Translations under genes and position numbers: made by a program
Part shown: in pieces, positions 1 to 55,234 of the stretch
How the letters are laid out: each line of letters opens with the position of its first letter
How positions within the stretch are numbered: the stretch's first letter is position 1
DNA from: Escherichia coli
GTDB lineage: Bacteria; Pseudomonadota; Gammaproteobacteria; Enterobacterales; Enterobacteriaceae
Assembly: GCF_013122565.1 (NCBI RefSeq)
Contig: NZ_CP053258.1
Direction: 5' to 3' (one strand)
DNA: 64,000 bases
The notes under the pieces: generated by a model
Told to the model about the DNA's origin: nothing
The model's database searches: none
The model's input: only the letters and a program-made list of their open reading frames with translations

Positions 1-1051
1 CAATTAATTTAAATCTTATTATTTGATTAACAAAGCATCATCATTACTGCATCTTATTCTCTATATCTTTTACGTCGGGGTAGATTCTTTATGGTCATTA
101 CGGGCAGGCGACATTTCATTATATTACCATTTGCATTCACGCTTGTAACCCTTAAGAGTTATATAAAAAGGAAAGAGTTCTTGCTCATGGTATTACTGAG
201 ATCGGATTAACCATGAGGTTAGCTATATAGAGAGCTTTGGCTTTGCGACAATTGGCTTAAGCAGCCACATTATGCCTGGCTTATCGTTGAAAGGGAGAAA
301 GAAGAGCAAAACGGTTTGGCAAGCTTTCATTCCCATCTAATAGCAATCACCGCTATACATCATCCCTTAACGTATTCTGGTCTTCATAAAAATGTTATTC
401 TAAATTAAAGATTGTAATGATTTTAATAATGTTGTTATTATTTTGCAACAAATCAATATAACACAATGATTATTCGCGATTTTTTATTAGTTAAGAGGAA
501 TTGTTTTTACAGATTGCGCTACAATTCCGCTCATTTCTCACCACAGGAAAAGCTGAAGTAATCTTAAATGACTGTATTAACCCTTTTCTCCGCTGCCAGC
601 ACTCTTAAATATCGTTGTTTTATTCTTATAAAAACGGCTTTTTTGACATAAAAAGTAATAGGTTCAGCCATTATGCAGAATTTACAACCTGAGAAAATCG
701 CAAAAAACACTCTTATTCAGAATAAAACTCTGTTTATCATCTTTCGGTAAGCATTAAATTACTATATTACCGTTCAACATGAGTATGAATGAAAATTCAG
801 TTGTTATACATGTGATGAATGTCATATATTGTGCTCATCGATTGCAGGACATCGCTATTCTTTTAGAGATACAGATATCACGCTGTTACTCTCTAATATA
901 AAGAACACGCAAAGATTAGTTGTGTTACTGCAGTTGTTATGTCGCATATGGAATGCCCATTGTTACATCTTTAGTAAAAAGCTTTATTCACTTTCAAAAT
1001 TTTTACTCCATGAAGATAGGCTGTTTTGCTGCAAGCAATTGAGTTAGTGCA

Positions 1052-1675
1052 ATGAACAAGAACTTACTAACAAGGGTAATTATCATTTCGGATGATCTAT
1101 ATTACCTTCAGGGATTAAGTGCAAAACTAGGTCACCATTATCGTTTTTTTATTGAGTGTTTTTTTTGTTCTCAAAATGCATGCAATAATGACCTAAGTAC
1201 ACTTAGATTTGACAACCGCTTTACAAAAAACGTACTTCTTGTCGCAGTGGATGACGTAAGTATACTTGCAAAACTGCCAGATTTGGCCAGGTTTTTAATG
1301 ATTGTTTCACTAAGAAAGATGAAAAACAGAAATATCTTCTTTTCACTTTCAGAGCAAACATTCATTAGCCGATATATAAAATTGAATAAACTCATTACTT
1401 TGATTAAAAGTACTGATAAAGACCAGCAAGTCAGGCAGGTGACTCTGACAAGGTATGAGTGGGATATCTATTACTTATTTTTTAAGATAGATAACAAAAG
1501 AATATTGCACACCCTGCTAAAAAAGGATGTCAAGTATATTAGTCACTATAAAATATCAGTTTTTAATAAGTTTGAAATTGCTTGTGATAGTGATGGCTTT
1601 TACATTTTCAAGGCACTTATACAGTTAAGGAGATTTACCCGTTTTAAAAACGTCAGATTGTATCAATTGCATTAA
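1052..1675 (+). CDS. Putative LuxR-family (FimZ/EcpR-like) transcriptional regulator immediately upstream of the fimbrial operon; the receiver-like N-terminus appears degenerate
   Basis: 207-aa ORF. C-terminal segment LTRYEWDIYYLF...KDVKYISHYKISVFNKF resembles a LuxR/FixJ-type HTH. Very AT-rich codon usage. Position directly 5' of the fimbrial major subunit gene. No similarity search was run. Confidence 0.45.
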   Translation: MNKNLLTRVIIISDDLYYLQGLSAKLGHHYRFFIECFFCSQNACNNDLSTLRFDNRFTKNVLLVAVDDVSILAKLPDLARFLMIVSLRKMKNRNIFFSLSEQTFISRYIKLNKLITLIKSTDKDQQVRQVTLTRYEWDIYYLFFKIDNKRILHTLLKKDVKYISHYKISVFNKFEIACDSDGFYIFKALIQLRRFTRFKNVRLYQLH

Positions 1676-1717
1676 TTAACTCGTTCTATATTAACTCTAA
1701 ATTTCAAGGATATTAAT

Positions 1718-2278
1718 ATGTTTTCTACTTTCAAAAAAGCAGCTCTGCTGGCAGCTATTGCATTACCTTTTTCAACTATGGCTGCGCCTACAGTCACTTT
1801 TCAGGGTGAAGTAACCGATCAGACCTGTTCCGTAAATATCAACGGTCAAACCAATTCAGTAGTATTGATGCCGACCGTAGCCATGGCTGACTTCGGTGCA
1901 ACTTTAGCTGATGGTCAGAGCGCAGGCCTGACGCCGTTTACGGTTTCTGTGTCTAACTGCCAGGCTCCAACTGGTACAGATCAGGCAATCAACACCACCT
2001 TCCTGGGCTACGACGTTGACGCTAGCACGGGTGTTATGGGAAACCGTGATACCAGCAGCGATGCGGCGAAAGGCTTTGGCATTCAGTTAATGGATTCCAG
2101 CACTTCTGGTAACCCAATAACTCTGGCTGGCGCGACTAACGTACCGGGTCTGACCCTGAAAGTTGGCGATACCGAAGCCAGCTACGACTTCGGTGCGCGT
2201 TACTTCGTTATCGATAGCGCTGCTGCCACTGCCGGTAAAATTACCGCTGTCGCAGAATACACCCTGAGCTACCTCTAA
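1718..2278 (+). CDS. Fimbrial major subunit (type-1/FimA-like pilin) of a chaperone-usher pilus
   Basis: 186 aa with an N-terminal signal peptide (MFSTFKKAALLAAIALPFSTMAA). FimA-like mature N-terminus TVTFQGEVTDQTCSV and a second Cys forming the conserved pilin pair. C-terminal beta strand ending AVAEYTLSYL. Confidence 0.8.
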   Translation: MFSTFKKAALLAAIALPFSTMAAPTVTFQGEVTDQTCSVNINGQTNSVVLMPTVAMADFGATLADGQSAGLTPFTVSVSNCQAPTGTDQAINTTFLGYDVDASTGVMGNRDTSSDAAKGFGIQLMDSSTSGNPITLAGATNVPGLTLKVGDTEASYDFGARYFVIDSAAATAGKITAVAEYTLSYL

Positions 2279-2342
2279 TTAATCTACTGGCTGGCAGTAA
2301 ATGTCAGCCAGTATTTCTTTGCACAATTAATAGTGATTTTTC

Positions 2343-3065
2343 ATGGACATGGAAAAGATAAGAATGAACATTTTTGCATATTTACTGGTACTTGTATTTT
2401 CCATGAGCATGAGCAGCAGCGCGTTTGCCAGCGTGGTAATGACCGGAACCCGTATTATTTTCCCTGGTGACGCAAAGGAAAAAACCATCCAGTTGCGAAA
2501 TACCAGCGATCAGCCCTATATCATTAATATCCATGTTGAGGATGAACGTGGTTCTGACAAGAATATACCGTTTATGCCAACCCCGCAGACATTTCGCATG
2601 GAAGCTGCCGCAGGTCAGGCGTTACGCCTGCTCTACACTGGTGATAATTTACCGCAGGATCGCGAGTCTGTTTTCTGGTTTAGTTTCAGTCAACTACCTT
2701 ATCTGAATAAGAACGATAAAAGTCAGAACCAGCTCATCCTGGCCCTGACTAATCGAGTCAAAATTTTCTATCGTCCCAGCTCAATTGTCGGTAAATCCAG
2801 TGACGCGCCAAAAAACCTGACTTACCAAGTAAAACAGAACCGCATTGAAGTGACGAATCCCACGGGCTATTACGTCGTGATTCGCGCCGCTGAACTGCTT
2901 AATAACGGTAAAAAAGTCCCCCTCGCGAATTCCGTCATGATTGCTCCTCAAGGCAAAACTGAATGGACACTACGCACTGGCATCAGCGTCGCTCCCGGTG
3001 CGCAGATTCATTTAGTGACCGTCAATGACTATGGCGTAAATGTCACGTCTGAGCATGCCTTATAA
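2343..3065 (+). CDS. Periplasmic fimbrial chaperone (PapD/FimC family)
   Basis: 240-aa ORF containing a signal peptide and PapD-like motifs (RIIFPGDAKE..., LPQDRESVFWFSF, RVKIFYRP). The true start may be an internal Met (MNIFAYLL...). Confidence 0.85.
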   Translation: MDMEKIRMNIFAYLLVLVFSMSMSSSAFASVVMTGTRIIFPGDAKEKTIQLRNTSDQPYIINIHVEDERGSDKNIPFMPTPQTFRMEAAAGQALRLLYTGDNLPQDRESVFWFSFSQLPYLNKNDKSQNQLILALTNRVKIFYRPSSIVGKSSDAPKNLTYQVKQNRIEVTNPTGYYVVIRAAELLNNGKKVPLANSVMIAPQGKTEWTLRTGISVAPGAQIHLVTVNDYGVNVTSEHAL

Positions 3066-3117
3066 GCTCTTTCCCCTTTTTTGAGCGGTATCCTTTTTCA
3101 CGCACGAGTATGTCGAG

Positions 3118-5640
3118 ATGAATAAATCCGTTGTGTCAATTTCTGCGGCAATATTGGTTTTACTCTGCCAGCCGGTTATGGGGAAAGAAATCTCACCCGC
3201 TACACCGTCAGATGAAGATAACTACACCTTTGACCCGCAACTCTTTCGCGGCAGCAGATTTAGTCAGTCGTCATTGGCAAAACTGACAACTCGTGAGTCT
3301 GTTGCACCGGGTAATTATAAAATGGATATCTACACCAATAATAAGTTGTCAGGCAGTTGGAATGTCACGTTCAAAGAAGCCGCTGATGGTCGCGTTCTGC
3401 CCTGCCTGACGCCTGAAGTCGCGGACGCGATAGGCCTCAAAACAGGGGAAGATAAGGGTGAAAAAGATCCGGTCTGTACCTTTGCTCAGGAACTCGCTCC
3501 CGGCATCACCAGCCAGACACAGTTGTCACAACTACGCCTTGACTTGTCGGTGCCTCAGAGTCAAATGATTAGTCGCCCTCGCGGCTATGTCCCCCCCAGC
3601 GAGCTGGATACCGGAGCATCGCTGGCGTTCATGAATTATATTGCCAACTATTACAACGTTGCCTATTCAGGGCAGAATGCTCATAGCCAGCGTTCGCTAT
3701 GGGCATCATTTAATGGTGGCATCAACCTTGGTGCCTGGCAATATCGTCAGTTATCCAACATGACCTGGGATAATGACAAAGGGAATCAGTGGAACAATAT
3801 TCGTAGCTATTTGCAACGCCCGCTGCCCGCCATAAATAGCCAGTTAATGATGGGGCAGCTTATCACCAGCGGAAGATTTTTCTCTGGACTCAGTTATCAC
3901 GGCGTTAGTCTCGCGACCGATGAACGTATGCTGCCGGACTCCATGCGCGGCTATGCGCCGACTATTCGCGGCGTGGCCGCAACAAACGCCAGAGTCTCGG
4001 TAATGCAAAACGGTCATGAAATATATCAGACCACCGTGGCTCCTGGCCCTTTCGAGATAAACGACCTATACCCCACCAGCTACAGCGGCGATCTGGATGT
4101 CACCGTTACGGAAGCTAACGGCGCAGTCAGTCGTTTCAGTGTCCCCTTTTCAGCCGTACCAGAATCGATGCGTCCAGGAACTTCCCGTTATAACGTGGAA
4201 GTAGGTAAAACGCAGGATAGTGGTGATGACTCGATGTTTGGTGACCTTACCTGGCAGCACGGGATGACTAATACGCTGACATTTAACAGTGGTTCGCGTA
4301 TCGCTGATGGCTACCAGGCGCTGATGCTGGGCGGAGTCTATGGCAGTTCGCTGGGGGCATTTGGGGCAAACCTCACTTGGTCCCATGCGCGTGTTCCCGA
4401 AAGCGAAGCGCAGAGTGGTTGGATGTCGCAATTAACCTGGAGTAAAACTTTCCAGCCTACTTCAACCACCGTCTCCCTGGCAGGTTATCGATACTCTACC
4501 AGCGGCTATCGTGATCTGGCTGATGTGCTGGGAGAGCGTCATGCTGCCAGCAATAAACAGTCATGGGACTCCAGCCAGTGGCGTCAACAGTCGCGCTTCG
4601 ATCTTACGTTAAGTCAGAGCCTTGCGAATTACGGCAACCTGTTTGTGTCAGGTTCAACACAGAACTACCGTGGCGGCAAAAGCCGTGATACACAGCTTCA
4701 GTTAGGTTACAGCAATAGCTTTAGCCATGGCATCAGTATGAACCTTTCCGTCGGACGCCAAAGAATGGGCGGCTATAAAGACAATTCTGATGATATGCAG
4801 ACGGTAACATCCCTTTCATTCTCATTCCCACTTGGCGGCAATGGACCTCGTGTACCAAGTCTTAGCAACAGCTGGACCCATTCAACTGACGGTAGCTCGC
4901 AATTACAAAGCTCGCTAACCGGAATGCTTGATGAAGCACAGACCACCAACTACAGCCTGAACGTCATGCGCGATCAACAATATAAGCAGACGACGCTTAG
5001 CGGAAACATGCAAAAACGTTTTTCACAAACTACCGTCGGATTGAACGCATCGAAGGGCCAGGATTACTGGCAGGCTTCAGGTAACGTACAAGGCGCGATG
5101 GCTGTGCATGGTGGCGGCATTACTTTCGGACCTTATCTGGGTGAAACGTTCGCCCTGGTCGAAGCTAAAGGCGCAGAAGGTGCAAAAGTCTATAACTCCA
5201 GTCAGCTGGAAATTAATGACAGTGGCTATGCGCTTGTTCCGGCAGTAACGCCCTATCGATACAACCGTATATCTCTCGATCCACAAGGAATGGATGGCGA
5301 TGCCGAGTTGGTCGACAGTGAAAGACAGGTAGCACCGGTTGCAGGTGCGGCGGTGAAAGTAATTTTCCGTACCCGTCCTGGTAAAGCGTTGCTGATTAAA
5401 TCCCGCATGGCAGATGGTTCGGAACTGCCAATGGGAGCCGATGTGCTGGATGAGAATAATACAGTCGTCGGTATAGCCGGTCAGGGGGGGCAAATTTACC
5501 TCCGCACAGAACAGACAAAAGGCCACTTGTCAGTTCGCTGGGGTGAAGGTGCTAACGATAGCTGCCAATTGCCCTTTGATATCAGCGGGAAGGACAGCAA
5601 TAGCCCTATCATCCGCCTGAATGAAACCTGTCAGTCTTGA
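3118..5640 (+). CDS. Outer-membrane fimbrial usher (FimD/PapC family)
   Basis: 840 aa with a signal peptide, of typical usher size, placed between a chaperone gene and an adhesin gene. Gln/Ser/Asn-rich beta-barrel composition. Confidence 0.9.
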   Translation: MNKSVVSISAAILVLLCQPVMGKEISPATPSDEDNYTFDPQLFRGSRFSQSSLAKLTTRESVAPGNYKMDIYTNNKLSGSWNVTFKEAADGRVLPCLTPEVADAIGLKTGEDKGEKDPVCTFAQELAPGITSQTQLSQLRLDLSVPQSQMISRPRGYVPPSELDTGASLAFMNYIANYYNVAYSGQNAHSQRSLWASFNGGINLGAWQYRQLSNMTWDNDKGNQWNNIRSYLQRPLPAINSQLMMGQLITSGRFFSGLSYHGVSLATDERMLPDSMRGYAPTIRGVAATNARVSVMQNGHEIYQTTVAPGPFEINDLYPTSYSGDLDVTVTEANGAVSRFSVPFSAVPESMRPGTSRYNVEVGKTQDSGDDSMFGDLTWQHGMTNTLTFNSGSRIADGYQALMLGGVYGSSLGAFGANLTWSHARVPESEAQSGWMSQLTWSKTFQPTSTTVSLAGYRYSTSGYRDLADVLGERHAASNKQSWDSSQWRQQSRFDLTLSQSLANYGNLFVSGSTQNYRGGKSRDTQLQLGYSNSFSHGISMNLSVGRQRMGGYKDNSDDMQTVTSLSFSFPLGGNGPRVPSLSNSWTHSTDGSSQLQSSLTGMLDEAQTTNYSLNVMRDQQYKQTTLSGNMQKRFSQTTVGLNASKGQDYWQASGNVQGAMAVHGGGITFGPYLGETFALVEAKGAEGAKVYNSSQLEINDSGYALVPAVTPYRYNRISLDPQGMDGDAELVDSERQVAPVAGAAVKVIFRTRPGKALLIKSRMADGSELPMGADVLDENNTVVGIAGQGGQIYLRTEQTKGHLSVRWGEGANDSCQLPFDISGKDSNSPIIRLNETCQS

Positions 5641-5655
5641 TACAGAGAAAACCCG

Positions 5656-6990
5656 ATGTCTAAATCGACTTTATTACACATTCTGATTAGCTCCATCATA
5701 TTGGTGGCACTAATACAATCATCCGCTTGGGCTAACTGTACAAACACACAGATAGGTCAAACTGAAGATGGTCGGACAGCGCTTATTGAGTTCGGAAAAA
5801 TTAATATGACCGACACCTATTTTGCGCCAGCAGGTTCACTCCTCGCGACAACGGTCGTACCTCCCACTAACTACACATCAGGTGGCGCGACAGGAAGCTC
5901 AGTATTGTGGGAATGTGATGCAACAGATTTGCCAAACATCTATTTTCTGGTCGCTACCAATGGCGACGACCGCGTGGGGGGCTTTTACGATGCAGGCGGG
6001 CCTGATGGTCTGAGTGATGTCTATGCCACCTGGTTCGCTTTTGTCGGTCTCAAGCAGACCATGGCGGGCGTGACGCTTGGTCGTTACTGGAAGAAAGTGC
6101 CCATCACCAGTTATGCCACTCAGGGAACTAAAATCCAGATTCGCTTACAGGATATCCCTCCTCTTCATGCTGAGCTTTATCGCATCAGTACGCTACCTGA
6201 TACATCAGCAACAACAAGTTGGTGCGGTAATAATAATACAGATGGTAGTGGAGTCGGATTCGCAAAACCTTCCGGTACAATCTATAACTGTGTTCAGCCC
6301 AATGCCTATATTCAGCTTTCCGGTACCAGCGGCATTTTATTTGGTCATGATGAGCCCGGCGAAGATAGTTCTGTTCATTGGGATTTCTGGGGTGCTGATA
6401 ATGGTTTTGGTTACGGAATGCGTTCGGCCAATCGACTCTACAACAATGCCACCTGCGTTGCCCGCAGCGCCACGCCGTTAGTATTGCTGCCGACAATTGC
6501 AGAAGCACAACTGAATGCGGGCATGGAAAGTACCGGTAATTTTAATGTCCGCGTCGAGTGTAGTAACTCGGTTCAATCAGGGATTAGCGATACTCAGACA
6601 GCATTAGGAATCCAGGTGTCTGAAGGTGCATATACAGCGGCGCAAAAACTGGGGATTATCAATAGCAACGGCGGCGTCAGCGCCCTGGTCTCTGATAATT
6701 ATGACGCAGCAGAGATGGCAAAGGGCGTTGGGATCTACATTTCTAACAGTGCTCACCCCGATACGGCGATGACGCTGGTTGGTCAACCGGGCATCGCGAA
6801 GTTAACCCCCGGAGGAAATGCAGCGGGGTGGTATCCTGTATTTGAAGGGGCAACATTAGAAGGTGCGACTCACCCCGGATACTCCAGCTATAGTTACTCT
6901 TTTATCGCCCGGTTGAAGAAACTGCCAAATCAGACAGTCAGTGCGGGAAAAGTGCGGGCAACGGCTTATATATTGGTGAAAATGCAATGA
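5656..6990 (+). CDS. Putative fimbrial tip adhesin (two-domain: N-terminal lectin-like domain plus C-terminal pilin domain)
   Basis: 444 aa with a signal peptide (MSKSTLLHILISSIILVALIQSSAWA) and several Cys pairs. Pilin-like C-terminus ...VRATAYILVKMQ. Located after the usher; its stop overlaps the downstream chaperone start (ATGA). Confidence 0.6.
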   Translation: MSKSTLLHILISSIILVALIQSSAWANCTNTQIGQTEDGRTALIEFGKINMTDTYFAPAGSLLATTVVPPTNYTSGGATGSSVLWECDATDLPNIYFLVATNGDDRVGGFYDAGGPDGLSDVYATWFAFVGLKQTMAGVTLGRYWKKVPITSYATQGTKIQIRLQDIPPLHAELYRISTLPDTSATTSWCGNNNTDGSGVGFAKPSGTIYNCVQPNAYIQLSGTSGILFGHDEPGEDSSVHWDFWGADNGFGYGMRSANRLYNNATCVARSATPLVLLPTIAEAQLNAGMESTGNFNVRVECSNSVQSGISDTQTALGIQVSEGAYTAAQKLGIINSNGGVSALVSDNYDAAEMAKGVGIYISNSAHPDTAMTLVGQPGIAKLTPGGNAAGWYPVFEGATLEGATHPGYSSYSYSFIARLKKLPNQTVSAGKVRATAYILVKMQ

Positions 6991-7676
6991 AATCCGTTTT
7001 GCTCCTCTTAACCGTCTTGTTCGTACAGTCAGTGGAAGCCGGCATCATGCCGGCTTCTTCACGGATTATTTATCGCGATGGCGATCGGGAAAAGACACTG
7101 ATGCTGGTCAATACCAATGACTATCCGGTACTGGTGCAAAGTTGGGTAGATAATGGTGAAGGTTCCCCAGAATCTGCTTCTCCCCCCTTTGTGGTGCTGC
7201 CACCGGTTTTCCGCCTGGCTGCGAGACGAACCCAGGGGTTGCGGATTATCTATAATCATGACCCACTTCCCCAGGATCGCGAATCTGCATTCTGGTTAAA
7301 TCTTTATGAAATGCCGCCAGAAACTCCCCATCAAGATCCCACACATTTAACGCTGGCAATGAATACGCAACTTAAAATCTTTTACAGGCCAAAATCTGTA
7401 ACTATGACGCCCCAAGAAGCTATGCGTAAAATAAGTTGGCATCTGGGTAACGACGGCAGCAGTAGCTATATTGAGCTTAATAACCCAACACCACTGAATA
7501 TCTCTTTCACCTCCATCAGCATTGGGGCTACAAAGGTGCAGCAAGAAAGCGATATGATGATAAAACCCTTCAGTCAACGACGGTACTGGTTAGCAAGTAA
7601 TAACGTTAGTGGTGTGGTTGCGGCGACATATCTCGATGATAATGGTGCACAGATAAAACAACAATTAGCGCAATAA
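6987..7676 (+). CDS. Second periplasmic fimbrial chaperone (PapD-like)
   Basis: 229 aa with a signal peptide and the motifs RIIYRDGDREKTLMLVN, LPQDRESAFWLN and LKIFYRPKS. Start codon overlaps the adhesin stop codon, suggesting translational coupling. Confidence 0.8.
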   Translation: MKSVLLLLTVLFVQSVEAGIMPASSRIIYRDGDREKTLMLVNTNDYPVLVQSWVDNGEGSPESASPPFVVLPPVFRLAARRTQGLRIIYNHDPLPQDRESAFWLNLYEMPPETPHQDPTHLTLAMNTQLKIFYRPKSVTMTPQEAMRKISWHLGNDGSSSYIELNNPTPLNISFTSISIGATKVQQESDMMIKPFSQRRYWLASNNVSGVVAATYLDDNGAQIKQQLAQ

Positions 7677-7821
7677 TGCTCTGAGTGGTATGTAAACTCA
7701 TCGCGATGGTTCAACGCTAACGAATAACCACTATACCCACCTGAAGTACCGGAAGTGGAGAAATGACAACATCTCTCCACTCCATTTTCCAGTCAAAACA
7801 CCTCAACGCAGCCAAAAATCG

Positions 7822-8613
7822 TTAACGAATTGAATATCCACCATCAATGACTAATAGTTGTCCATTGACATAATCTGAAGCGGCACTGGCGAGGAACACC
7901 ATTGCGCCCATAAGATCCTGTGCCCTTCCCCAGCGTTGAGCCGGTATACGCCCTTTTATTAACTCTTTTATTTTAGGGTTATTATAAATAATAGCGGTCA
8001 TTTCACTCACATAATATCCTGGGGCGATACCATTAATCTGAATATTATATTCCGCAAAATCATCGGCATACGCTTTGGTCAGCCCCGCTAAAGCATGTTT
8101 AGTCGCCGCATACCCTGGCGACCAACGTCCCCCATGAAATGACAATACGGAACACATATTAATAATTTTCCCTTTTCTTTGCGGGACAAATATATTCAAT
8201 GCGGCCTGGCTCATATCGAATGCAGCATTCAGGTTGAGATTAATCATCGGATCCCAGTCGTTTCGATTGAAATCGATAGGACGATTAAAGTTACACACGC
8301 CCGCGTTATTGACCAGAATATCTAACTGACCGAAACGCTCCAGACACCTATTAATAATGGTGCATGCTGCATCAGGTTTTGTTATGTCTATTGTCATAAA
8401 CTCAACTTCAACGCCTTCATGAGTTAAATGCTTTAAATATCTATTATCAGGCTCTTTGATGTCTACCAACAATAGATTAGCCCCTGCTTTGGCCAGAGCC
8501 GAGCATAAGCCTCTCCCCAGCTCACCCGCGGCCCCAGTTACGATGGCCACCTTGTTATGTAATGAAAAAAAATCCAATGAAAAATCTTCAATAGAAAAGC
8601 TCATATCACACAT
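7822..8613 (-). CDS. Short-chain dehydrogenase/reductase, KduD-like (2-dehydro-3-deoxy-D-gluconate 5-dehydrogenase paralog)
   Basis: 263 aa. Rossmann motif VAIVTGAAGELG, NNAG motif, catalytic Y-x3-K (SPGYAATKHA), and a C-terminus ASDYVNGQLLVIDGGYSIR closely resembling KduD. Start may be the Met three codons downstream. Confidence 0.8.
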   Translation of the reverse strand: MCDMSFSIEDFSLDFFSLHNKVAIVTGAAGELGRGLCSALAKAGANLLLVDIKEPDNRYLKHLTHEGVEVEFMTIDITKPDAACTIINRCLERFGQLDILVNNAGVCNFNRPIDFNRNDWDPMINLNLNAAFDMSQAALNIFVPQRKGKIINMCSVLSFHGGRWSPGYAATKHALAGLTKAYADDFAEYNIQINGIAPGYYVSEMTAIIYNNPKIKELIKGRIPAQRWGRAQDLMGAMVFLASAASDYVNGQLLVIDGGYSIR

Positions 8614-9291
8614 TGCTCCTTATGAGTAAGTAATATTTAAGGGATAATTTAAGTAATTTTTAGATTTCAATAAAAAAATATAAACATTAAAACTCAGCAT
8701 GAATAATAAACATCAAATCTTATATACATTTAAGTAGTGATGTATCACGTAAAAATATAGTCATCATAGATGTTATGCAGTACGCACAAAAAAACAGACT
8801 GGATTTGCTTGCTGATCTATAATCTTTATCTAAATTACTATTGGCGCTTTGGATAATAACATAAGCATATATTACCTCCTAGCAATAATAGACATAACCT
8901 CATATCAAGGTGTCACTGGTAAATAATCGGATAAAGGACAGTACCGGTCGGCACATAGAGCTTCTTCTATTTCACCAGAAGTGCACAGCAGGGAACTACC
9001 AATCACACGGTTAGTGTCATGGGTGGAGGATGCGTCCCGTTCTTTCCCAATAACGGGGATACGCAGTTTTTATCAGTACATGCAGAAAAACCCCTAATTC
9101 ACATCACTGCAGAAAGCATTTAATAGAAATATACATCGTTTAAGAATTTCAATTAAATCAAGATTATTCTTAAAAATCAGATAATTCACATTTGCATTTT
9201 TAGGAAATTATACTATAGTGCAATTAATGTTCTTGCCTTTATTTTGTAAGTAATACTGGATTTGTAATACACAACTAAGGTATAAAATGTA

Positions 9292-10104
9292 ATGATCTAC
9301 ATTATAAATGATGAAGTAAGATTCAACTCATCATCTAATAAGTTAACATCACTCCTTACATCAGAGGAAGTGATACTCACTTATCCTGCGGGAAAATGCT
9401 TAAAATTACTTTTAGATAACGCTTATAGTGTCGTATCGCACAATCAATTCTTTGAAAAAGTCTGGAGCGATAGCAGCGCTGAAGTCGCAACCAATACTTT
9501 ATATCAAAACATTTCGATGATAAGACGCTCCTTTCGTGAAATCAGCTCATCGACGATATTTAATGATATTATCAGAACGGTGCCGCGTAAGGGTTTTAAA
9601 ATCAATGAAGAAATCAACATAACTGTTCTCGACAATAATCATACTGAGAATGAAAGTGTTGAGAGTGAAGAGGATGGTACCCACATTGAAAATATAAATA
9701 AAAATCATGTTGCAAAAGATATTTTCACCACAAAGAATACATTACTTATAGTGTACTTTTTTGCGGCATGGGGGATAGTGTATATATCTTCTTATTTTTT
9801 CGATATGGCTTTTCAAAGCAAAGCTCACACTATAAAAAAAACAGATGCTTTCTCAAATTATGCTCAACATCCTACTCAGGAAGGGTGTAGCTATTTCTAT
9901 GACAATATATATTTTAATTCCGTAGACATGTTATCACCGATTATTGAAAAATTGCAGAAAATGGAAATTAACTGCAAAATACATCCTTACATTTACATTG
10001 CAACAAATGATAGCATGAGCGGGTTTTATGCTTTCACCTGTAGTCAGATGTTAAACTCTGAATCACCAAATAATTGTAATTCTCTCTATTATAAAGCGGA
10101 GTAA
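9292..10104 (+). CDS. Membrane-anchored ToxR/CadC/MarT-like transcriptional regulator (N-terminal OmpR-type winged helix, one TM segment, Cys-containing periplasmic domain); resembles E. coli YqeI
   Basis: 270 aa. Winged-helix signature ...FFEKVWSDSSAEVATNTLYQNISMIRRSF...IIRTVPRKGFKI. Acidic linker followed by a hydrophobic segment NTLLIVYFFAAWGIVYISSYFF. About 100-aa C-terminal domain with four or more Cys. A GG-containing RBS-like motif lies upstream of the ATG. Confidence 0.7.
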   Translation: MIYIINDEVRFNSSSNKLTSLLTSEEVILTYPAGKCLKLLLDNAYSVVSHNQFFEKVWSDSSAEVATNTLYQNISMIRRSFREISSSTIFNDIIRTVPRKGFKINEEINITVLDNNHTENESVESEEDGTHIENINKNHVAKDIFTTKNTLLIVYFFAAWGIVYISSYFFDMAFQSKAHTIKKTDAFSNYAQHPTQEGCSYFYDNIYFNSVDMLSPIIEKLQKMEINCKIHPYIYIATNDSMSGFYAFTCSQMLNSESPNNCNSLYYKAE

Positions 10105-10108
10105 TCAT

Positions 10109-10600
10109 ATGACTCAAAGATATTTTCTATTTGCGGGAATAATTTTATGTGCTTTTATTGCAGCAATTCTTAGCCATATTGCGTTTCATCATGCCAATGA
10201 ACCAGCAGAGCAAAACATATCATGTAATGCCCATGTTATTAATTTCACCGATCATACGAAAATGGATCAATACTTTTCGTTAAATATGATTTCTGAAAAT
10301 AATACAGGGAATATGTATCTCACGGGTGCTTACACGGTAAATGGGAAAAAAATGGGTTTCATCCGCCGATATGTGAGTTTTACATACAAGAAATTCCGTG
10401 ATACCGTTTATTTCACCACAGTTAAAATACAAAAAATACAAAAAGATGATAACATTAGTGATGAAATCCTTGAAAATATCACTTCTGATTTTTTCATAAA
10501 AGTAGACACCTCAATTAATTTTTATGTTACACGTCAAAATGATTACAACTACGTATTCTCTACAGGCAGGACACCACGCTTCATATGTATTTCCCACTAA
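10109..10600 (+). CDS. Small N-terminally anchored periplasmic partner protein (ToxS/FidL/YqeJ-like) of the upstream ToxR-like regulator
   Basis: 163 aa. Starts 4 nt after the upstream stop (coupled). Single N-terminal TM (YFLFAGIILCAFIAAILSHIAF) followed by an Asn/Thr-rich periplasmic domain. Size and arrangement match ToxS/FidL-type partners. Confidence 0.5.
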   Translation: MTQRYFLFAGIILCAFIAAILSHIAFHHANEPAEQNISCNAHVINFTDHTKMDQYFSLNMISENNTGNMYLTGAYTVNGKKMGFIRRYVSFTYKKFRDTVYFTTVKIQKIQKDDNISDEILENITSDFFIKVDTSINFYVTRQNDYNYVFSTGRTPRFICISH

Positions 10601-10700
10601 CAGTAGTGTTGATCATTGCGCTTGTCATCAGATAATAACCTTCTGATGGCTTTGTTTATATTTTAAGGCAATAAAAAACATTCCAATATTGGTTAATTAT

Positions 10701-12215
10701 TTATCTGTTTACATACCACTGATAAAACTCTGTCGCTTTCATTGGTTTTGCATATAAGTACCCCTGAACTAATGTCACGTTATTATGAATAAGATATTCC
10801 GCCTGGTGAGGAGAACTGACACCTTCTGCAATCGTTATCAAATTTAGTCGATTACTCAGCTTAATAATAATATCTAAAACTGGCGTTTCGTCTTCCGCTG
10901 TAGTGAGTGTGTCTATAAAGCTTTTATCTATTTTAAGATAATCAACAGACAACTTTTGTAGAAGGCCAAGGGAACAATATCCCGTGCCAAAATCATCAAC
11001 TGCAAATTCACAGCCATGGATCCTTAATTCATTTATTTTCTGTAATGCAAGATCAGTGTCTTCAACCAGATTGCGTTCGGTAATCTCAAGGACAATATTA
11101 AATTTATCAGATATTGCATTTTTAATATGTAAAACATCAGCAACAAAGTCAGGATGTGCAAGATGTTCCGCGGCAATATTTATCCCAAGGTGAAACGGTT
11201 TTTTCACTTTCCAGCTTTGTACATCCTGAATAATCAGTTCAAAGAGATGCTTAGTTAACGGTATTATTAAATTTTCCTCTTCTGCCGCGCGGATAAAAAC
11301 TACCGGAGATATATTTTTACCATCTTCGCGTTGCCAGCGCATTAACGCTTCAACCCCCAGACACGCTTTGGTTGTCGTGTCGCACACTGGTTGATAATGC
11401 ACAGAAAATTCTCCGGATGACATTCCTTTTTTAATTTCTTCTGCCAGCGACATTTTCCGTGACATCCAGTGCTGCCATAAGAAATAGAGAATAAAAGAAA
11501 GAATAATAGATAACGGCAAAATATAAAGCACATTGCTAATGATATAGGGATATAACGAAATCATCGGCGTAGTAACTGTAAGACGAGCCTGACTGTTCGC
11601 AGAATTAAAATCTCTTTTTAACATATATAACCTGTCATTATTATTTACACCACTAATAATTGCAGGCCCTTCAGTAAAGCGAAGAGAAAATGAATCATCA
11701 TTCTCATCATCAAGAACATCCATTAGATCATAGATATATCGTGACTCGACAATACTAAAAGCTGTCATATTATTCCCTAATGGCATAAGGAACACTATGG
11801 CTGTTTTACCTGGTACAAAACTTGTTCCGCTAATTGATACTATGCGTGATTCTTTATTTTTATTGTGAAAGCTCGTACCGTAAACATCGTTAACATTCAT
11901 TTTTTTGAAACCGCTAACTGAAGAACATATTTGGAAATTATTTTCTATAAGACCCGTTGTTCGAACATAGGGAGTCAATGCTCCGTTAGCAATCAACTGC
12001 TCCAGGATATCTTTGCAGGGTTTCATCACCAGAATAGAAGTAAGCTTTGTCGTATGCTGGACAATTTGCGTAACATTATCAAGCTGTTTTAACAGAATAC
12101 CGGCGGTAATTGTCGTATCTCTATTCATTTGAAATATTGACATAGCAAACGATAGTAACACCCCCAGAATGCCTGGTATTATAATGAGTACAAACATTTT
12201 TTTGTTGAATACCAT
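10701..12215 (-). CDS. pdeT: CSS-motif EAL-domain c-di-GMP phosphodiesterase (PdeT/VmpA-like), absent from K-12
   Basis: ORF 10701..12311. Probable start is the Met at 12215 (MVFNKKMFVLIII...), immediately before TM1. Periplasmic domain with CSS motif (QICSSVSG) and a second Cys, then TM2. EAL domain with intact EAL (GVEALMRW), LEITE and DDFGTGY motifs. The gene name is assigned from memory of the EHEC vmpA/pdeT locus next to dgcT. Confidence 0.75.
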   Translation of the reverse strand: MVFNKKMFVLIIIPGILGVLLSFAMSIFQMNRDTTITAGILLKQLDNVTQIVQHTTKLTSILVMKPCKDILEQLIANGALTPYVRTTGLIENNFQICSSVSGFKKMNVNDVYGTSFHNKNKESRIVSISGTSFVPGKTAIVFLMPLGNNMTAFSIVESRYIYDLMDVLDDENDDSFSLRFTEGPAIISGVNNNDRLYMLKRDFNSANSQARLTVTTPMISLYPYIISNVLYILPLSIILSFILYFLWQHWMSRKMSLAEEIKKGMSSGEFSVHYQPVCDTTTKACLGVEALMRWQREDGKNISPVVFIRAAEEENLIIPLTKHLFELIIQDVQSWKVKKPFHLGINIAAEHLAHPDFVADVLHIKNAISDKFNIVLEITERNLVEDTDLALQKINELRIHGCEFAVDDFGTGYCSLGLLQKLSVDYLKIDKSFIDTLTTAEDETPVLDIIIKLSNRLNLITIAEGVSSPHQAEYLIHNNVTLVQGYLYAKPMKATEFYQWYVNR

Positions 12216-12408
12216 ACATGTTTCCCCACGCATCAGGGTGATGCAACCTAAGAAATTATAGTACAATTGCCAGTAAAAGCGGGTGATAGCAGATTGATCA
12301 ATGATAAGCATTTAAGATCATATAGTACTATGATATTTCTGAAAATTGTTACGCAAGTCTGCGAATAGCTATTTAGCGCTTACCAAAATCACCCGCTAAA
12401 ATGCCGCT

Positions 12409-20587: not shown

Positions 20588-21652
20588 TTAACTGTATGCA
20601 TGTAGCGTACGTTGGCAAAGTGCCGAACGTACGCAATCCTCTTTACCGAATCGGACGATCCCGACCATTTCATCTTCTTCGAAACGTTCCAGTGCGTCAC
20701 TTAATCCGGAGCGCACGCCGCGAGGTAAATCGCATTGCGTGATATCACCGTTAACGATAACCGTCACGTTCTCCCCGAGGCGGGTTAAAAACATTTTCAT
20801 TTGCGCGGCAGTCACATTCTGCGCCTCGTCAAGAATGACAACTGCATTTTCAAAGGTACGTCCACGCATATAGGCGAACGGCGCAATTTCCACCTTCCCT
20901 ATTTCCGGTCGCAGGCAGTACTGCATAAAGGAAGCCCCTAAGCGCCGGACCAGCACGTCGTATACCGGGCGAAAATAGGGAGCAAACTTTTCTGCGATAT
21001 CTCCAGGTAAGAAGCCAAGATCTTCATCGGCTTGCAGAACTGGACGGGTGACGATAATCCTGTCGACATCCTTATGTATCAGGGCCTCTGCCGCTTTTGC
21101 TGCGCTGATCCAGGTTTTTCCGCACCCGGCTTCGCCCGTAGCGAATATCAGCTGCTTACTCTCAATAGCCTTCAGATAGTGCAATTGCGCTTCATTTCGC
21201 GCGAGGATGGGCGAAGTATCGCGACTGTCGCGGGCCATACCAATGGCTTCTACGCCGCTCATCTGCACAAGCGAGGTGACCGATTCTTCTTCACGCTGCT
21301 TATGGCTGCGCGAATCCCGTCTCAGCACACGTTTTGCCTCGCGACGAGCTTTGATCACTGCTTTTTGTCTTCCCATGGAGAGCACCTTGAGTTGTTTGTA
21401 TTCATCACACGCGCCGTTGGCAGCGCGATTATGCGCACGAACATCAGAGGGTTGGCTTCCTTGTAAGCCATAGTTTGCTTTTGGATAAAATGCCGAAAAA
21501 CGGCTACGCGCACCGTTTACGGCGTCGGTAACACATGAAAAGAAAGGATGAGGTTGAAAATGCAAAGTGACGAGATGACTACCGGAGGAGAAAACTCCGC
21601 GAGTGGTGGCGCGTTGATTATCTAAAACATGTCCAGTACAGGACGTTACCAT
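20588..21652 (-). CDS. phoH: PhoH, phosphate-starvation-inducible ATPase
   Basis: 354 aa; matches K-12 PhoH (MVTSCTGHVLDNQRATTRGVF...); Walker A GEAGCGKT. Confidence 0.95.
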   Translation of the reverse strand: MVTSCTGHVLDNQRATTRGVFSSGSHLVTLHFQPHPFFSCVTDAVNGARSRFSAFYPKANYGLQGSQPSDVRAHNRAANGACDEYKQLKVLSMGRQKAVIKARREAKRVLRRDSRSHKQREEESVTSLVQMSGVEAIGMARDSRDTSPILARNEAQLHYLKAIESKQLIFATGEAGCGKTWISAAKAAEALIHKDVDRIIVTRPVLQADEDLGFLPGDIAEKFAPYFRPVYDVLVRRLGASFMQYCLRPEIGKVEIAPFAYMRGRTFENAVVILDEAQNVTAAQMKMFLTRLGENVTVIVNGDITQCDLPRGVRSGLSDALERFEEDEMVGIVRFGKEDCVRSALCQRTLHAYS

Positions 21653-21996: not shown

Positions 21997-23268
21997 TTAA
22001 ACCCGCAATAACGCGCTTCCGAGATAATCATTCGCGTCCTTCACTCCCGGCAGCGCAAAAAAATAGCCGCCGCCGATAGGTTTAACGTATTCCTCCAGCG
22101 CTTCGCCATTGAGCCTTTTTTGTACTGTCAGGAAGCCTTTTTCCAGATCGTGCTGGTAGCAGACAAACAGCAACCCCATATCCAGTTGTCCGGAGTTGGT
22201 GACGCCCAGTGAATAACTGTAGCCACGACGCAGCATCAGGCTGGACTCACTCTCCGCCGTGCGGGGATTCGCCAGCCGGATATGGCTGTCCAACGCAATC
22301 ACCTTCCCTTCCGGGTCGCTGGCGTAATCAGGCACATCATGCTCATGCTGCATTCCCAGCGGCGCACCGGTTTGCTTATCACGGCCAAAAATCGTCTGCT
22401 GTTCTTTCAGCGGCGTTCTGTCCCAAAATTCCACTCGAAACTGAATCAAGCGTACTGCCTGATAGCTGCCACCGATTGTCCACGCAGGCTCCTGCTGATC
22501 TGCCGTTACCCACACCACTTTTTGCATCAACTTATCATTCTGGCTATCGGGATTGGCAGTGCCGTCTTTGAAACCCAGCAAATTAATCGGCGTCTCTTTG
22601 CCTTTACTACGCGCCGCGTGATCGGAAATAAACCCTTCCCGCTTCCAGCGCACACTGAGCAAATCCGGCGTGTGTTTGATGATATCGCGCAGCGCATGGA
22701 TAACCGTGTCCTGGGTGTTGGCGCAAATCTGTAGCAACACATCACCATGACATAACGCCGCATCCAGCGAGTCGTTGGGGAAACGCGTCATCTTCTGCAG
22801 CTTTTTTGGCATCTGTGGCGCAAGGCCAAAGCGCTCATCAAACAATGAGTGACCCACCGATAACGTGATGGTGAGATTATCGGGCGCAATGTAGCCGCCA
22901 AGAATGCCGGAATCGAGTGGTGGCAGGCGCGGATTTGGCGTTTCTGGTGCTGCTCCGCCCTGAGTCAGAAAAGCAAAACGCTGAGTCAACAAGCGAAACA
23001 ACCGCTCAAGATCGGCTTTATCGCTGGCAAGCACATCAAACGCCACCAGCATCATTGCGGCCTGTTGTGGCGTCAGGATCCCTGCCTGATGCTCACCATA
23101 AAACGGCTGTTTCTCATTGCGAGCATCCGGTGAAAGCGTACCCGGCGCACTTTGCGTTTTTTGTGCATGAGCGACCGGACAACTTCCCGCCAGCGCCAGT
23201 GCACCTATCACTTTCAGTAAACGTCGGCGTGACGGTTCATTCACGCCGTTTTCATCTTTATACTGCAT
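21997..23268 (-). CDS. efeB: EfeB, Tat-secreted DyP-type heme peroxidase/deferrochelatase of the EfeUOB ferrous iron transporter
   Basis: 423 aa; twin-arginine signal ([16 protein letters not shown]); matches K-12 EfeB (YcdB). Confidence 0.95.
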
Positions 23269-23273
23269 AACGC

Positions 23274-24401
23274 TTAATCCAGTCCCAGCACACCGCGAAG
23301 TTGCGCCAGATCTTCCGCCAGCGCAGTAATCGGTCCTTTCAGTGCATTCCGGTCGGCATCGGTCAATTTGTCGTAGGTTTCAAAACCGTCTTTAGTACGG
23401 TATTTCGCCAGAATGGTATCGACCTTTTTAAAGTTGGCATCGACTTTTGCCAGCAGTTCCGGGTTGGCTTTTTGCAGTTGTGGACGCAGCAAATCGACAA
23501 TTTTCTGCGAGCCTTCAACGTTAGCCTGGAAATCCCACAGATCGGTGTGGCTGTAGCGATCTTCTTCACCGCTAATTTTGCTGGCTGCCACTTCCTCAAT
23601 CAGTCCGGCTGCGCCGCCGACCACTTTTGAAGGTGGGAAAGCCAGTTCACTGATGCGTTTTTGCAAATCGACCACATCGGTATAAAGCTGCTCAGCGTAC
23701 TGATCCATCCCTTTGGTGGTGTTGTCGCCAAACAATGCTTTTTCCAGACGGTGGAAACCAGTGAATTTTGGGTCGGCGGCTTTTTGCTCGTAATCATCTT
23801 CACGGGCGTCAATGCTGCCATCCAGATCGGAGAACAGTTCAGCAATCGGTTCAATACGCTCATAGTGCTGGCGCGTCGGTGCATACAGTGCTTTCGCTTT
23901 TTCGATATCGCCTGCTTTAATCGCGTCGGTAAAGGCTTTGGTGTCGGTCACCAGCTGCGTGGTTTCCGCCATGACATACGCTTTATATGCAGTAATTGCA
24001 CCACCAAGACTTAACAGCGCATCACTTTGCGCCGCATCCGCCGTTGCCTCACCTTTGACGATCAACTTCCCTTTCGGGTTAGTCAGCAGACCGCAGGTCA
24101 TATCGTATTCGCCAGGCTGTAAATTCGCCGTCATTTTCTGGCTAAAGCCAGGGGCGATATTTTCCCGCTCTTCCACCACCATCACGCCTTTGAGGATCTC
24201 CCACTCCAGCGCCTTCTGGCTGTGGTTCTGAATAATGAACTGTGTTTTCCCGGCGTTAACCGTAATGGTCATCGGTTCGCACTGCTTATCCGTCACGGTC
24301 ACTTTGACCTGCGGCACATCAGCGGCGTTAGCCATAAAAGCAGAAGAAAACAGCGCAGCCACGCTCAACTGCAATGCGTTACGGCGGAAGTTAATGGTCA
24401 T
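23274..24401 (-). CDS. efeO: EfeO, periplasmic iron-binding cupredoxin/M75 protein
   Basis: 375 aa; signal peptide; matches K-12 EfeO (YcdO). Confidence 0.95.
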
Positions 24402-24458
24402 GACGAGACTATCCCTTTAAAGTATGTTGTAACTAAGCAAGAGTTTGCGTCGTATTTG

Positions 24459-25289
24459 TTACGCGGAGCGAGACGCTGTCGCCCCTGCGCGTGGTGGCAG
24501 AGCAAATGCCACCAGCGCCGGGATGAGATAAATAAACCAGACGGCGACTTCGCTGACGCTCGGCGCTTCCTGATAGCCAAAAATCCCTTCCATCAGCGTG
24601 CCAAACAGCGAGTGAGTTGAGAGCACCGCACTCATATCGAAGGCGATTTCCTGAAAGTGGTTCCACAATCCGGCTTCATGAAATGCGCGAATGGCACCAG
24701 CTGCCAGCCCTGCGGCGACGAAGAGAATAAACAGGCTGGTCCATTTAAAAAATGCACCAAGATTGAGGCGAATACCGCCCCAGTAGAGCAGGAAGCCTAG
24801 CACCACGGCAGTAGCAAGACCGAGCATTGCACCCAGCGGCGGCCAGATCCCGACATCTTGTTGAAATGCCGCCAGCAGGAAAAAGACCGACTCCAGCCCT
24901 TCCCTTGCAACGGCAAAAAAGACCATCATCACCAGCGCCCAGCCATGATGATTTCCACGCTGCAATGCGCTATCGACTGCCTGTTCCAGTTGCACTTTGA
25001 CGTTGCGCGACACTTTGCGCATCCAGAAAACCATCCAGGTAAGGATCACCACGGCGATCACCGCCACGATACCTTCAAACAGTTCCTGTTCTTTTTGCGG
25101 AAATTCGCCGGTGGTTTCGTTAATGAAGATACCCAAGCCCAGGCACAACGCAGCGGCAAGCAACACGCCAATCCACATCACACCAATCCATCGGCCTCGC
25201 TGGGTACGCTTAAGATAGCTGGCAATCAAACTGACAATCAGCGCGGCTTCAAGTCCTTCGCGCAACATAATGAGAAACGGAACAAACAT
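24459..25289 (-). CDS. efeU: EfeU, Ftr1-family ferrous iron permease; intact reading frame
   Basis: 276 aa from MFVPFLIMLREGLEAALIV... with two REGLE motifs (REGLEAAL, REGLESVF). A single uninterrupted ORF, unlike the frameshifted K-12 allele. Confidence 0.9.
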   Translation of the reverse strand: MFVPFLIMLREGLEAALIVSLIASYLKRTQRGRWIGVMWIGVLLAAALCLGLGIFINETTGEFPQKEQELFEGIVAVIAVVILTWMVFWMRKVSRNVKVQLEQAVDSALQRGNHHGWALVMMVFFAVAREGLESVFFLLAAFQQDVGIWPPLGAMLGLATAVVLGFLLYWGGIRLNLGAFFKWTSLFILFVAAGLAAGAIRAFHEAGLWNHFQEIAFDMSAVLSTHSLFGTLMEGIFGYQEAPSVSEVAVWFIYLIPALVAFALPPRAGATASRSA

Positions 25290-25346
25290 GCCACCCACCC
25301 TTAAACGTTTTTCTGAGTCAATCTATGCAAAGAAAAGTAAATCGCA

Positions 25347-25366
25347 GTGATAGCGATTATCATTAC
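25347..25366 (-). promoter_or_regulatory. Candidate Fur box in the efeU promoter region
   Basis: gtgatagcgattatcattac; its reverse complement TAATGATAATCGCTATC resembles the Fur consensus GATAATGATAATCATTATC. Lies 60-80 bp upstream of the efeU start. Confidence 0.5.
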
Positions 25367-25831
25367 GGCAAAGAAAAACACAAGCGGAATGTTTATAAAA
25401 TGATGTTGGAATGTAAACAAAGAGAGGTAATGCCAGGGGATATAAACGATTATTCCAGGGTAGAAAGATGGGATTGTTTGCAAAGAACCATGTGTTCTTG
25501 CCGGATGCCGCGTAAACGCCATATCCAGCCGACAAAACTGTCCAGACTCAATGCATCAGAGCTTCCATGTAAAACTGATAAGCGGGTGTATCAAGCAATT
25601 TCGTCCATCCGCGATTATCAAATCTAACTTTTTGCCCGGAACATAATAACAGCTCGGGTGTTGGTGGCGTCAAAATCGCTGAAGCGTTCCCCGAAGGCCG
25701 GGACAGCAGGGGGCGGCGGCGATTGGCCGCCCCCTGCGCGCTCCCTGCACCATTCAATTTATATGGCGAGGCACATTAAGGGAGCGCAACCCGCTGCTGA
25801 AGCCAAACAAAACCGCCGCAGGCTAAGTCCC

Positions 25832-27340
<1,509 letters not shown>

Positions 27341-54563: not shown

Positions 54564-54735
54564 GGTCAGTGCGTATTTGCAGCGCGACGTTATCAAAGGT
54601 GATCATCGTCGATTTACAAAAAATACACTTAGCGCCCAAAGGGTTTCGCTCCGTCACATCGAATGCCGATGTACGGTACTGTGAACCATGACAATATGGA
54701 CAGCGGAAATGGAGATGTTGAGTAATAACGGCAAC
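54538..54735 (-). CDS. Possible small zinc-ribbon protein (YmcF-like) immediately downstream of cspG
   Basis: ORF 54538..54798 carries CPYC-x20-CIFC. Its ATG lies inside cspG, so a GTG start just after the cspG stop (giving about 65 aa) is more plausible. Confidence 0.3.
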   Translation of the reverse strand, partial: VAVITQHLHFRCPYCHGSQYRTSAFDVTERNPLGAKCIFCKSTMITFDNVALQIRTDHAPLDFTK

Positions 54736-54736
54736 C

Positions 54737-54949
54737 TTAGAGCGTAACAACGTTCGCTGCCGCGGGGCCACGTTGCCCCTGCTCAATAGAAAATTCAACT
54801 TTCTGATTTTCGTTCAGCGTGCGGAATTCATTGCTCTGGATGGCGGTGAAATGGACGAAAACGTCTTTGCTGCCATCATCAGGAGTGATAAAGCCAAAAC
54901 CTTTATCTGCGTTAAACCATTTTACTAAACCAGTCATTTTATTAGACAT
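54737..54949 (-). CDS. cspG: CspG, cold-shock protein
   Basis: 70 aa, [34 protein letters not shown]... Confidence 0.95.
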
Positions 54950-55234
54950 ATTTTACTTCCTTCATTTTGGGCCTTTCGGCAAACAGGGCTTTAATACAGA
55001 AACTACTTAGTGTTCAGGAGAGAGACTCAAAAGAAGGGGATAATGCCTGATAATGAGAACTGCTTTAGTAAACTACTTTGTATGCTGTCTGTCTTTCAAA
55101 CCGACGCAGCTATTAACGCATGATAATTGAGATTAAGCAAATTTTATTTTAGCCGTCCGGCGGTCTTAAATATCGCTGGCTTTATTTTATTAACCCCGTA
55201 TAGTGCAGCGCAGTATTTTCAGTAAGGAATTTGT

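Follow-up and report, generated by a model that had tools for sequence, protein, structure and literature searches.

The EfeUOB (YcdNOB) system of Escherichia coli has been described as an acid-induced system for the uptake of ferrous iron at low pH (Grosse et al. 2006, Mol Microbiol 62:120; Cao et al. 2007, Mol Microbiol 65:857). The title of the latter paper calls efeUOB 'cryptic in K-12 but functional in O157:H7'. For the strain Nissle 1917, PMC3136457 cites Grosse et al. 2006 for an induction that depends on Fe2+-Fur. In MG1655 the transporter has been reported to be non-functional owing to a frameshift in efeU (PMC2808357), and the gene is annotated as a frameshifted pseudogene in MG1655 and W3110 (b4490 in K-12; formerly efeU_1/efeU_2, b1016/b1017). 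At a greater distance, EfeU is comparable with yeast Ftr1p and the bacterial OFeT/FTR1 family, with which it shares a full-length family match, two REXXE motifs and the character of a multi-span membrane protein. However, the partner of yeast Ftr1p is the multicopper oxidase Fet3p, whereas the partners of EfeU are EfeO and EfeB.

The regulation of the operon has also been studied. Gao et al. 2023 (PMC10164565) found Fur ChIP-exo peaks 5' of efeU in MG1655, W3110 and W. They assigned efeO as well as efeB to the core Fur regulon, both genes being upregulated in the delta-fur mutants of nine out of nine strains (log2FC 1.06-7.67). In a table of PMC9600279, efeU is given as a negatively regulated CpxR target. 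In this study we analyzed the efeUOB locus in a 64-kb stretch of E. coli DNA, hereafter called the window, which is very probably an ordinary wild-type efeUOB locus with its native iron- and envelope-stress-responsive promoter.

Gene content and predicted products of the locus

The genes of the locus are arranged in the order phoH, efeB, efeO, efeU, putP and putA, an order (putP, efeU, efeO, efeB, phoH) shared with the EfeUOB systems of O157:H7 and Nissle 1917. The three efe genes lie on one strand with gaps of 57 bp (efeU to efeO) and 5 bp (efeO to efeB), and all of them encode complete Pfam domains with no internal stops. The features of the operon and of its control region are listed in Table 1.

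Table 1. Features of the efeUOB operon and its control region in the window. Negative numbers give the distance from the efeU ATG.
Feature	Position	Strand	Basis and remarks
efeB, 423 aa, DyP-type haem peroxidase	21997..23268	-	Pfam Dyp_perox_N and Dyp_perox_C
efeO, 375 aa, periplasmic	23274..24401	-	Pfam Cupredoxin_1 and Peptidase_M75 (M75/imelysin); N-terminal signal peptide
efeU CDS, 276 aa	24459..25289	-	ORF list, translation (ATG at 25289, stop at 24459) and Pfam FTR1; same bounds annotated in strain 730V1
Second REGLE (REXXE), residues 129-133	24891..24905	-	Translation and motif search; coding-strand DNA AGGGAAGGGCTGGAG
GG of codon 36 (GGT, Gly36; context ATT GGT GTG)	25183..25184	-	One G lost in K-12 (MAFFT)
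First REGLE (REXXE), residues 10-14	25248..25262	-	Translation and motif search; coding-strand DNA CGCGAAGGACTTGAA
Shine-Dalgarno-like AAGGGTGGG, 5-13 nt 5' of ATG	25294..25302	-	Read from sequence; AAGG 56-78% conserved
CpxR-consensus-like box GCAAAGAAAAGTAAA, -52..-38	25327..25341	+	Predicted; 9/10 to GTAAA-N5-GTAAA
7-1-7 core TGATAATCGCTATCA of the Fur box	25348-25362	-	12/14 specified positions of TGATAATnATTATCA
Fur box CGTAATGATAATCGCTATC, -78..-60	25349..25367	-	Mismatch scans; 15/19 to consensus
Putative -10 GATAAT, -72..-67, inside the Fur box	25356..25361	-	Read from sequence; columns 97-100% conserved
Putative -35 TTGTGT, -94..-89	25378..25383	-	Conserved block CTTG..TTT at -95..-87
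Literature-curated CpxR site GGAATGTTTATAAAA, -111..-97	25386..25400	+	Known efeU (ycdN) site, supplement file 1 of PMC9600279

The preliminary description of this DNA had presented efeU as one unbroken ORF with both REGLE motifs, and this is what the translation gave: 276 codons with no internal stop. The product matches the Pfam family FTR1 (PF03239) with E=1.8e-89 and 300.3 bits (gathering cutoff 25.3), and the match aligns residues 1-275 with positions 1-283 of the 284 in the profile. On its sequence, EfeU is unambiguously an iron permease of the Ftr1/OFeT type. Its hydropathy, judged by the Kyte-Doolittle scale alone, contains six stretches above 1.6, with the charged segment of the second REGLE motif as a seventh. 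This is compatible with the seven transmembrane segments given for EfeU in PMC9174327. A sequence search of the PDB with EfeU yielded no solved structure of any sequence relative.

The N-terminus of EfeB carries the twin-arginine signal SRRRLLK, and that of EfeO is signal-peptide-like. Taken with the domain content, these features are consistent with an arrangement in which EfeU would be an Ftr1-like permease of the inner membrane with both REGLE motifs inside transmembrane segments. EfeO (cupredoxin plus M75) and the Tat-exported EfeB (a DyP haem peroxidase) would act as its periplasmic partners.

The K-12 lesion

To locate the difference from K-12, we aligned the window with MG1655 by MAFFT over the 1.43 kb that separate the stop codon of putP and the start codon of efeO. 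Exactly three differences were found in this interval: two intergenic SNPs (window positions 25521 and 25436) and one indel, an extra G at 25184 that is present in the window and absent from MG1655. This G, which belongs to codon 36, is the sole coding difference between the efeU of the window and the K-12 pseudogene. Because K-12 lacks one G of the codon, its frame is shifted and terminates at codon 37, where TM2 begins; the translation ends as ...GRWIV*. The K-12 locus is otherwise shared with the window: the putP-efeU spacer has the same length of 542 bp apart from the two SNPs, the Fur boxes do not differ, EfeO is the same protein, and EfeB is one residue off (L416F). The preliminary description had set the efeU of this strain apart from the frameshifted K-12 allele and had proposed an alignment with K-12 efeU as the check. 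The alignment bears it out, as the frameshift position is wild type in the window and neither a frameshift nor a stop was found.

Frequency of the intact allele in E. coli

The same description had implied that intactness was something special to this strain. We examined this by an allele census of 5426 complete E. coli genomes, for which short queries centred on the codon-36 site were used so that megablast seeds only on an allele match. The intact allele with the 41-mer of the window type was found in 3928 of the 5426 genomes, and another 1024 carried an intact allele with a synonymous GTA at codon 37, which is typical of a divergent lineage. The K-12 deletion was present in only 367 genomes, and 107 were not assigned by the three queries. 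Thus, at least 4952 of the 5426 genomes (at least 91%) are intact at the codon-36 site, a count that concerns this site only. The sampled genomes with the K-12 deletion were mostly MG1655, W3110, DH10B, MC4100, TOP10, XL1-Blue and similar laboratory derivatives. The genome size was K-12-like in all of them, and for a few the source given is human, animal or food. Intact efeU is therefore the norm of the species and the K-12 break is the exception, and we rejected the idea that the intact gene marks an unusual strain, since the census shows the reverse.

At least one complete genome departs from the usual arrangement in another way. In NZ_CM128604.1, the match stops at query position 1487 and the gene annotated beside efeU is efeB, not efeO. 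This suggests that efeO is occasionally lost in nature.

The Fur box and its conservation

The preliminary description had pointed to a Fur-like sequence 60-80 bp 5' of the start. We found the sequence CGTAATGATAATCGCTATC there, 60-78 bp from the ATG. The 17-mer quoted earlier, TAATGATAATCGCTATC, occupies 25349-25365 on the coding strand, 60-76 bp 5' of the ATG, and the 19-bp register ends at 25367, one base beyond the end coordinate given in that description. The consensus sequences used were the 19-bp GATAATGATAATCATTATC and the 7-1-7 form TGATAATnATTATCA. A scan of the 64-kb window with the Fur consensus at three or fewer mismatches returned no site, the efeU site having four. The window was rescanned with four to five mismatches and with the 7-1-7 consensus, and the efeU box was then the best match, with no other site of equal quality in the 64 kb. 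Against the consensus of the classical Fur-repressed promoters of E. coli (GATAATGATAATCATTATC or TGATAATnATTATCA), the efeU box thus matches at 15 of 19 and 12 of 14 positions, and like those promoters it would place the operator over the likely -10. It differs in its centre, where the classical consensus has A and T and the E. coli efeU box has G and C.

To examine the conservation of the promoter, we searched collections with one genome per species by means of a degenerate DNA pattern based on the N-terminus of EfeU. The 120 loci retrieved represent more than 30 genera, among them Citrobacter, Enterobacter, Klebsiella, Kluyvera, Pantoea, Erwinia, Serratia, Yersinia, Rahnella and Hafnia. From these, 116 usable efeU promoters were compared with a background of 4829 windows of 200 bp taken from the same loci. 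A Fur box with four or fewer mismatches was present in 95.7% of the 116 promoters and in 0.04% of the background windows. In Enterobacteriaceae it nearly always lies between -70 and -80, and in Yersinia, Serratia and Rahnella its position is about -90 to -140. In the alignment of 114 promoters, the columns -75..-66 and -63..-60 are 90-100% conserved, compared with 20-60% for the flanks. Conservation within the box is lower at the two central columns, -65 (71%) and -64 (74%), and at its edge, -76 (82%). At -65, E. coli has a G, whereas the consensus A is found in 71% of the orthologues, so the E. coli box is slightly weaker than that of most of its relatives. The other genera mostly have ACTATC here and are one mismatch nearer the consensus. 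Within E. coli, the window shares the promoter sequence from -78 to -1 without change with K-12, O157 and a B2-type strain.

CpxR sites and promoter anatomy

The alignment of orthologues revealed three conserved blocks: CTTGTGTTT at -95..-87, the Fur box at -76..-60, and TTTACTTTTCTTTGC at -52..-38. The last of these is the sequence GCAAAGAAAAGTAAA on the opposite strand, a predicted CpxR box. The window has three sites that depart from the CpxR consensus at no more than one position, and this is one of them. A box of this quality occurs in 92% of the 116 efeU promoters, compared with 1.3% of the background windows, and about 37% of the orthologous promoters carry the perfect form GTAAAGAAAAGTAAA. 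The site at -52..-38 has been predicted independently with a PSSM score of 14.9 (PMC9600279, supplement), and it may already have been described in Cao et al. 2007. The literature-curated CpxR site GGAATGTTTATAAAA is only 18-58% conserved across the orthologues. The two sites together would account for the reported repression by CpxAR.

We tentatively suggest, at somewhat less than an even chance of being right, that the conserved box at -52..-38, and not GGAATGTTTATAAAA, is the operator through which CpxR mainly controls efeUOB across Enterobacterales, where it would act as a roadblock just 3' of the promoter covered by Fur. The same tentative suggestion includes that the A-to-G change of the E. 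coli lineage in the centre of the Fur box slightly loosens iron repression compared with the other genera.

The first conserved block contains the putative -35 element. Its CTTG and TTT are 93-98% identical across the orthologues, with -91 at 73% and -90 at 37%. The spacing between TTGTGT and GATAAT is 16 bp. A scan of 25200-25900 with the sigma-70 consensus found no promoter at the threshold used. We infer from the sequence a TTGTGT-N16-GATAAT promoter with the Fur box lying over the -10, which would be a classical occlusion arrangement; since the assignment of the -35 and -10 elements is itself inferred, so is the occlusion mechanism. When iron is plentiful, Fe2+-Fur would bind the box at -78..-60. 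As the box appears to cover the -10 GATAAT, the bound repressor would block transcription, and iron starvation would relieve the block. A terminator-like hairpin (25340-25358) in the region of the Fur and CpxR boxes was within the expectation from shuffled sequences.

Alternative interpretations

By window-wide chance alone, the efeU Fur box is weak, and it could be asked whether it is no operator but an AT-rich promoter element with a chance likeness to the Fur consensus. The box has four mismatches to the 19-bp consensus and includes the -10-like hexamer GATAAT, and at least one site of equal quality arose somewhere in 18% (19-mer) or 29% (7-1-7) of the dinucleotide-shuffled windows. However, the chance expectation for such a site is only about 0.001-0.002 per 200-bp promoter. 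The whole 17-bp block, including the distal half-site CTATC, has been kept in more than 30 genera at 90-100% except for the two central columns and -76, and a box of equal quality is found in nearly all efeU promoters but hardly ever in the background. Furthermore, the W3110 ChIP-exo peak at 1081715-1081727 (TATCACTGCGATT) maps to the 3' end of the Fur box, where the sequence is identical to that of the window; the interval is 13 bp long and overlaps the box by 5 bp, not being centred on it. The derepression of efeO and efeB in the delta-fur mutants of nine strains points in the same direction. We consider the chance explanation extremely improbable. The cross-genus footprint and the published Fur experiment on an identical sequence settle the question of the Fur box despite the weak window-wide statistics, and the reading of the preliminary description is upheld by the conservation together with the ChIP-exo and delta-fur expression data.

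With the box accepted as a Fur operator, the operon could still be inactive although efeU reads through, because of a defect in efeO, efeB or the promoter or a missense change. EfeB differs from the K-12 protein at one residue (L416F) and from the O157 protein at five, and EfeO differs from its O157 counterpart at one residue. On the other hand, EfeU and the O157 protein WP_000497942.1 are 100% identical, EfeO is identical to that of K-12, and neither EfeO nor EfeB is truncated, both having complete domains and a signal peptide. The O157:H7 promoter from -78 to -1, with the Fur box and the CpxR-like box included, is the same as that of the window, as are those of K-12 and the B2-type strain. 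We regard such a defect as very unlikely. Given the identity of EfeU with the O157 protein and of EfeO with that of K-12, and the single change L416F in EfeB, the inference of a working system is sound. The statement in the preliminary description that EfeUOB should be functional is therefore plausible for this strain, the function being transferred from the identical O157 EfeU and the literature. A third possibility concerns the start of the protein. The mechanical ORF list opens the ORF (24459-25298) at an in-frame GTG, which would extend the N-terminus by MGG. In 114 orthologous loci, the columns of this GTG (-9..-7) are only 27-53% conserved compared with 99-100% for the ATG. The Shine-Dalgarno-like sequence AAGGGTGGG would overlap the GTG, and the RefSeq annotation uses the ATG, as in strain 730V1, whose sequence agrees with that of the window at 100% identity over 24300-25900. 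Translation from the GTG has next to no probability, and we rejected this start as the codon is unconserved among the orthologues.

The putP-efeU spacer and the rest of the window

The spacer between putP and efeU (window 25420-25831) is structurally variable. It is 542 bp in the window and K-12, only 219 bp in the B2-type strain (positions 270-488 of locus L126), and about 2.7 kb in O157 (positions 993-3665 of locus L004). Unlike the window, O157 contains an extra hypothetical gene of 1344 bp and unrelated sequence between putP and efeU, beyond about -130. As homology resumes about 130 bp 5' of the efeU ATG, the conserved control region is delimited at this point. In the window, the spacer holds a TRIP1b repeat (25645-25790, minus strand), which corresponds to K-12 coordinates 1080855-1081000 (PMC10888264) and within which a GC-rich inverted repeat of 12 bp, perfect in its arms, lies at 25706-25737. 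Because of TRIP1b in the spacer, a 1.6-kb query matched a median of three places per genome. A REP-like palindromic element, GCCGGATGCCGCGTAAACGCCATATCCAGCC, lies at about 25500-25530 on the plus strand, and the K-12 SNP at 25521 falls inside it. Antisense to the efeU promoter and overlapping the Fur and CpxR boxes is an ORF of 100 aa (25325-25627, plus strand), which is annotated in W3110 as 'hypothetical protein' WP_001326841.1 and is probably a spurious gene call.

Beyond the operon, positions 1-12400 of the window form an accessory island with chaperone-usher fimbrial genes and genes for an EAL-domain protein, a winged-helix regulator and an SDR oxidoreductase. The island was found at a coverage of at least 80% in only 378 of the 5426 complete E. 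coli genomes, O157:H7 included. Strain 730V1 is without it and is otherwise collinear with the window over 12.4-50 kb at about 98% identity. Two full-length Rfam matches were also noted. Ysr251 (20593-20786, plus strand, 188.5 bits) is antisense to phoH at the 3' end of that gene, a short way downstream of efeUOB, and the cspA thermoregulator (54683-55105, minus strand, 158 bits) is presumably the 5' UTR of a paralogous cold-shock protein.

Significance

The intact efeU and its Fur operator belong to a well-described operon in its normal condition, which has been correctly recognized again here, and they are already known. The additions made here are modest: the allele census, the cross-genus footprint, and the suggestion that -52..-38 is the principal CpxR operator. 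The footprint maps the control of efeU as a -35 block, a Fur box over the putative -10 and a predicted CpxR box downstream, and could be used to refine the curated annotation. The intact gene is relevant only where K-12 physiology is extrapolated to this strain, and is otherwise a matter of correct annotation. With efeU intact, an acid-induced route for ferrous iron uptake that K-12 lacks should be available to this strain, as it should to nearly all natural E. coli.
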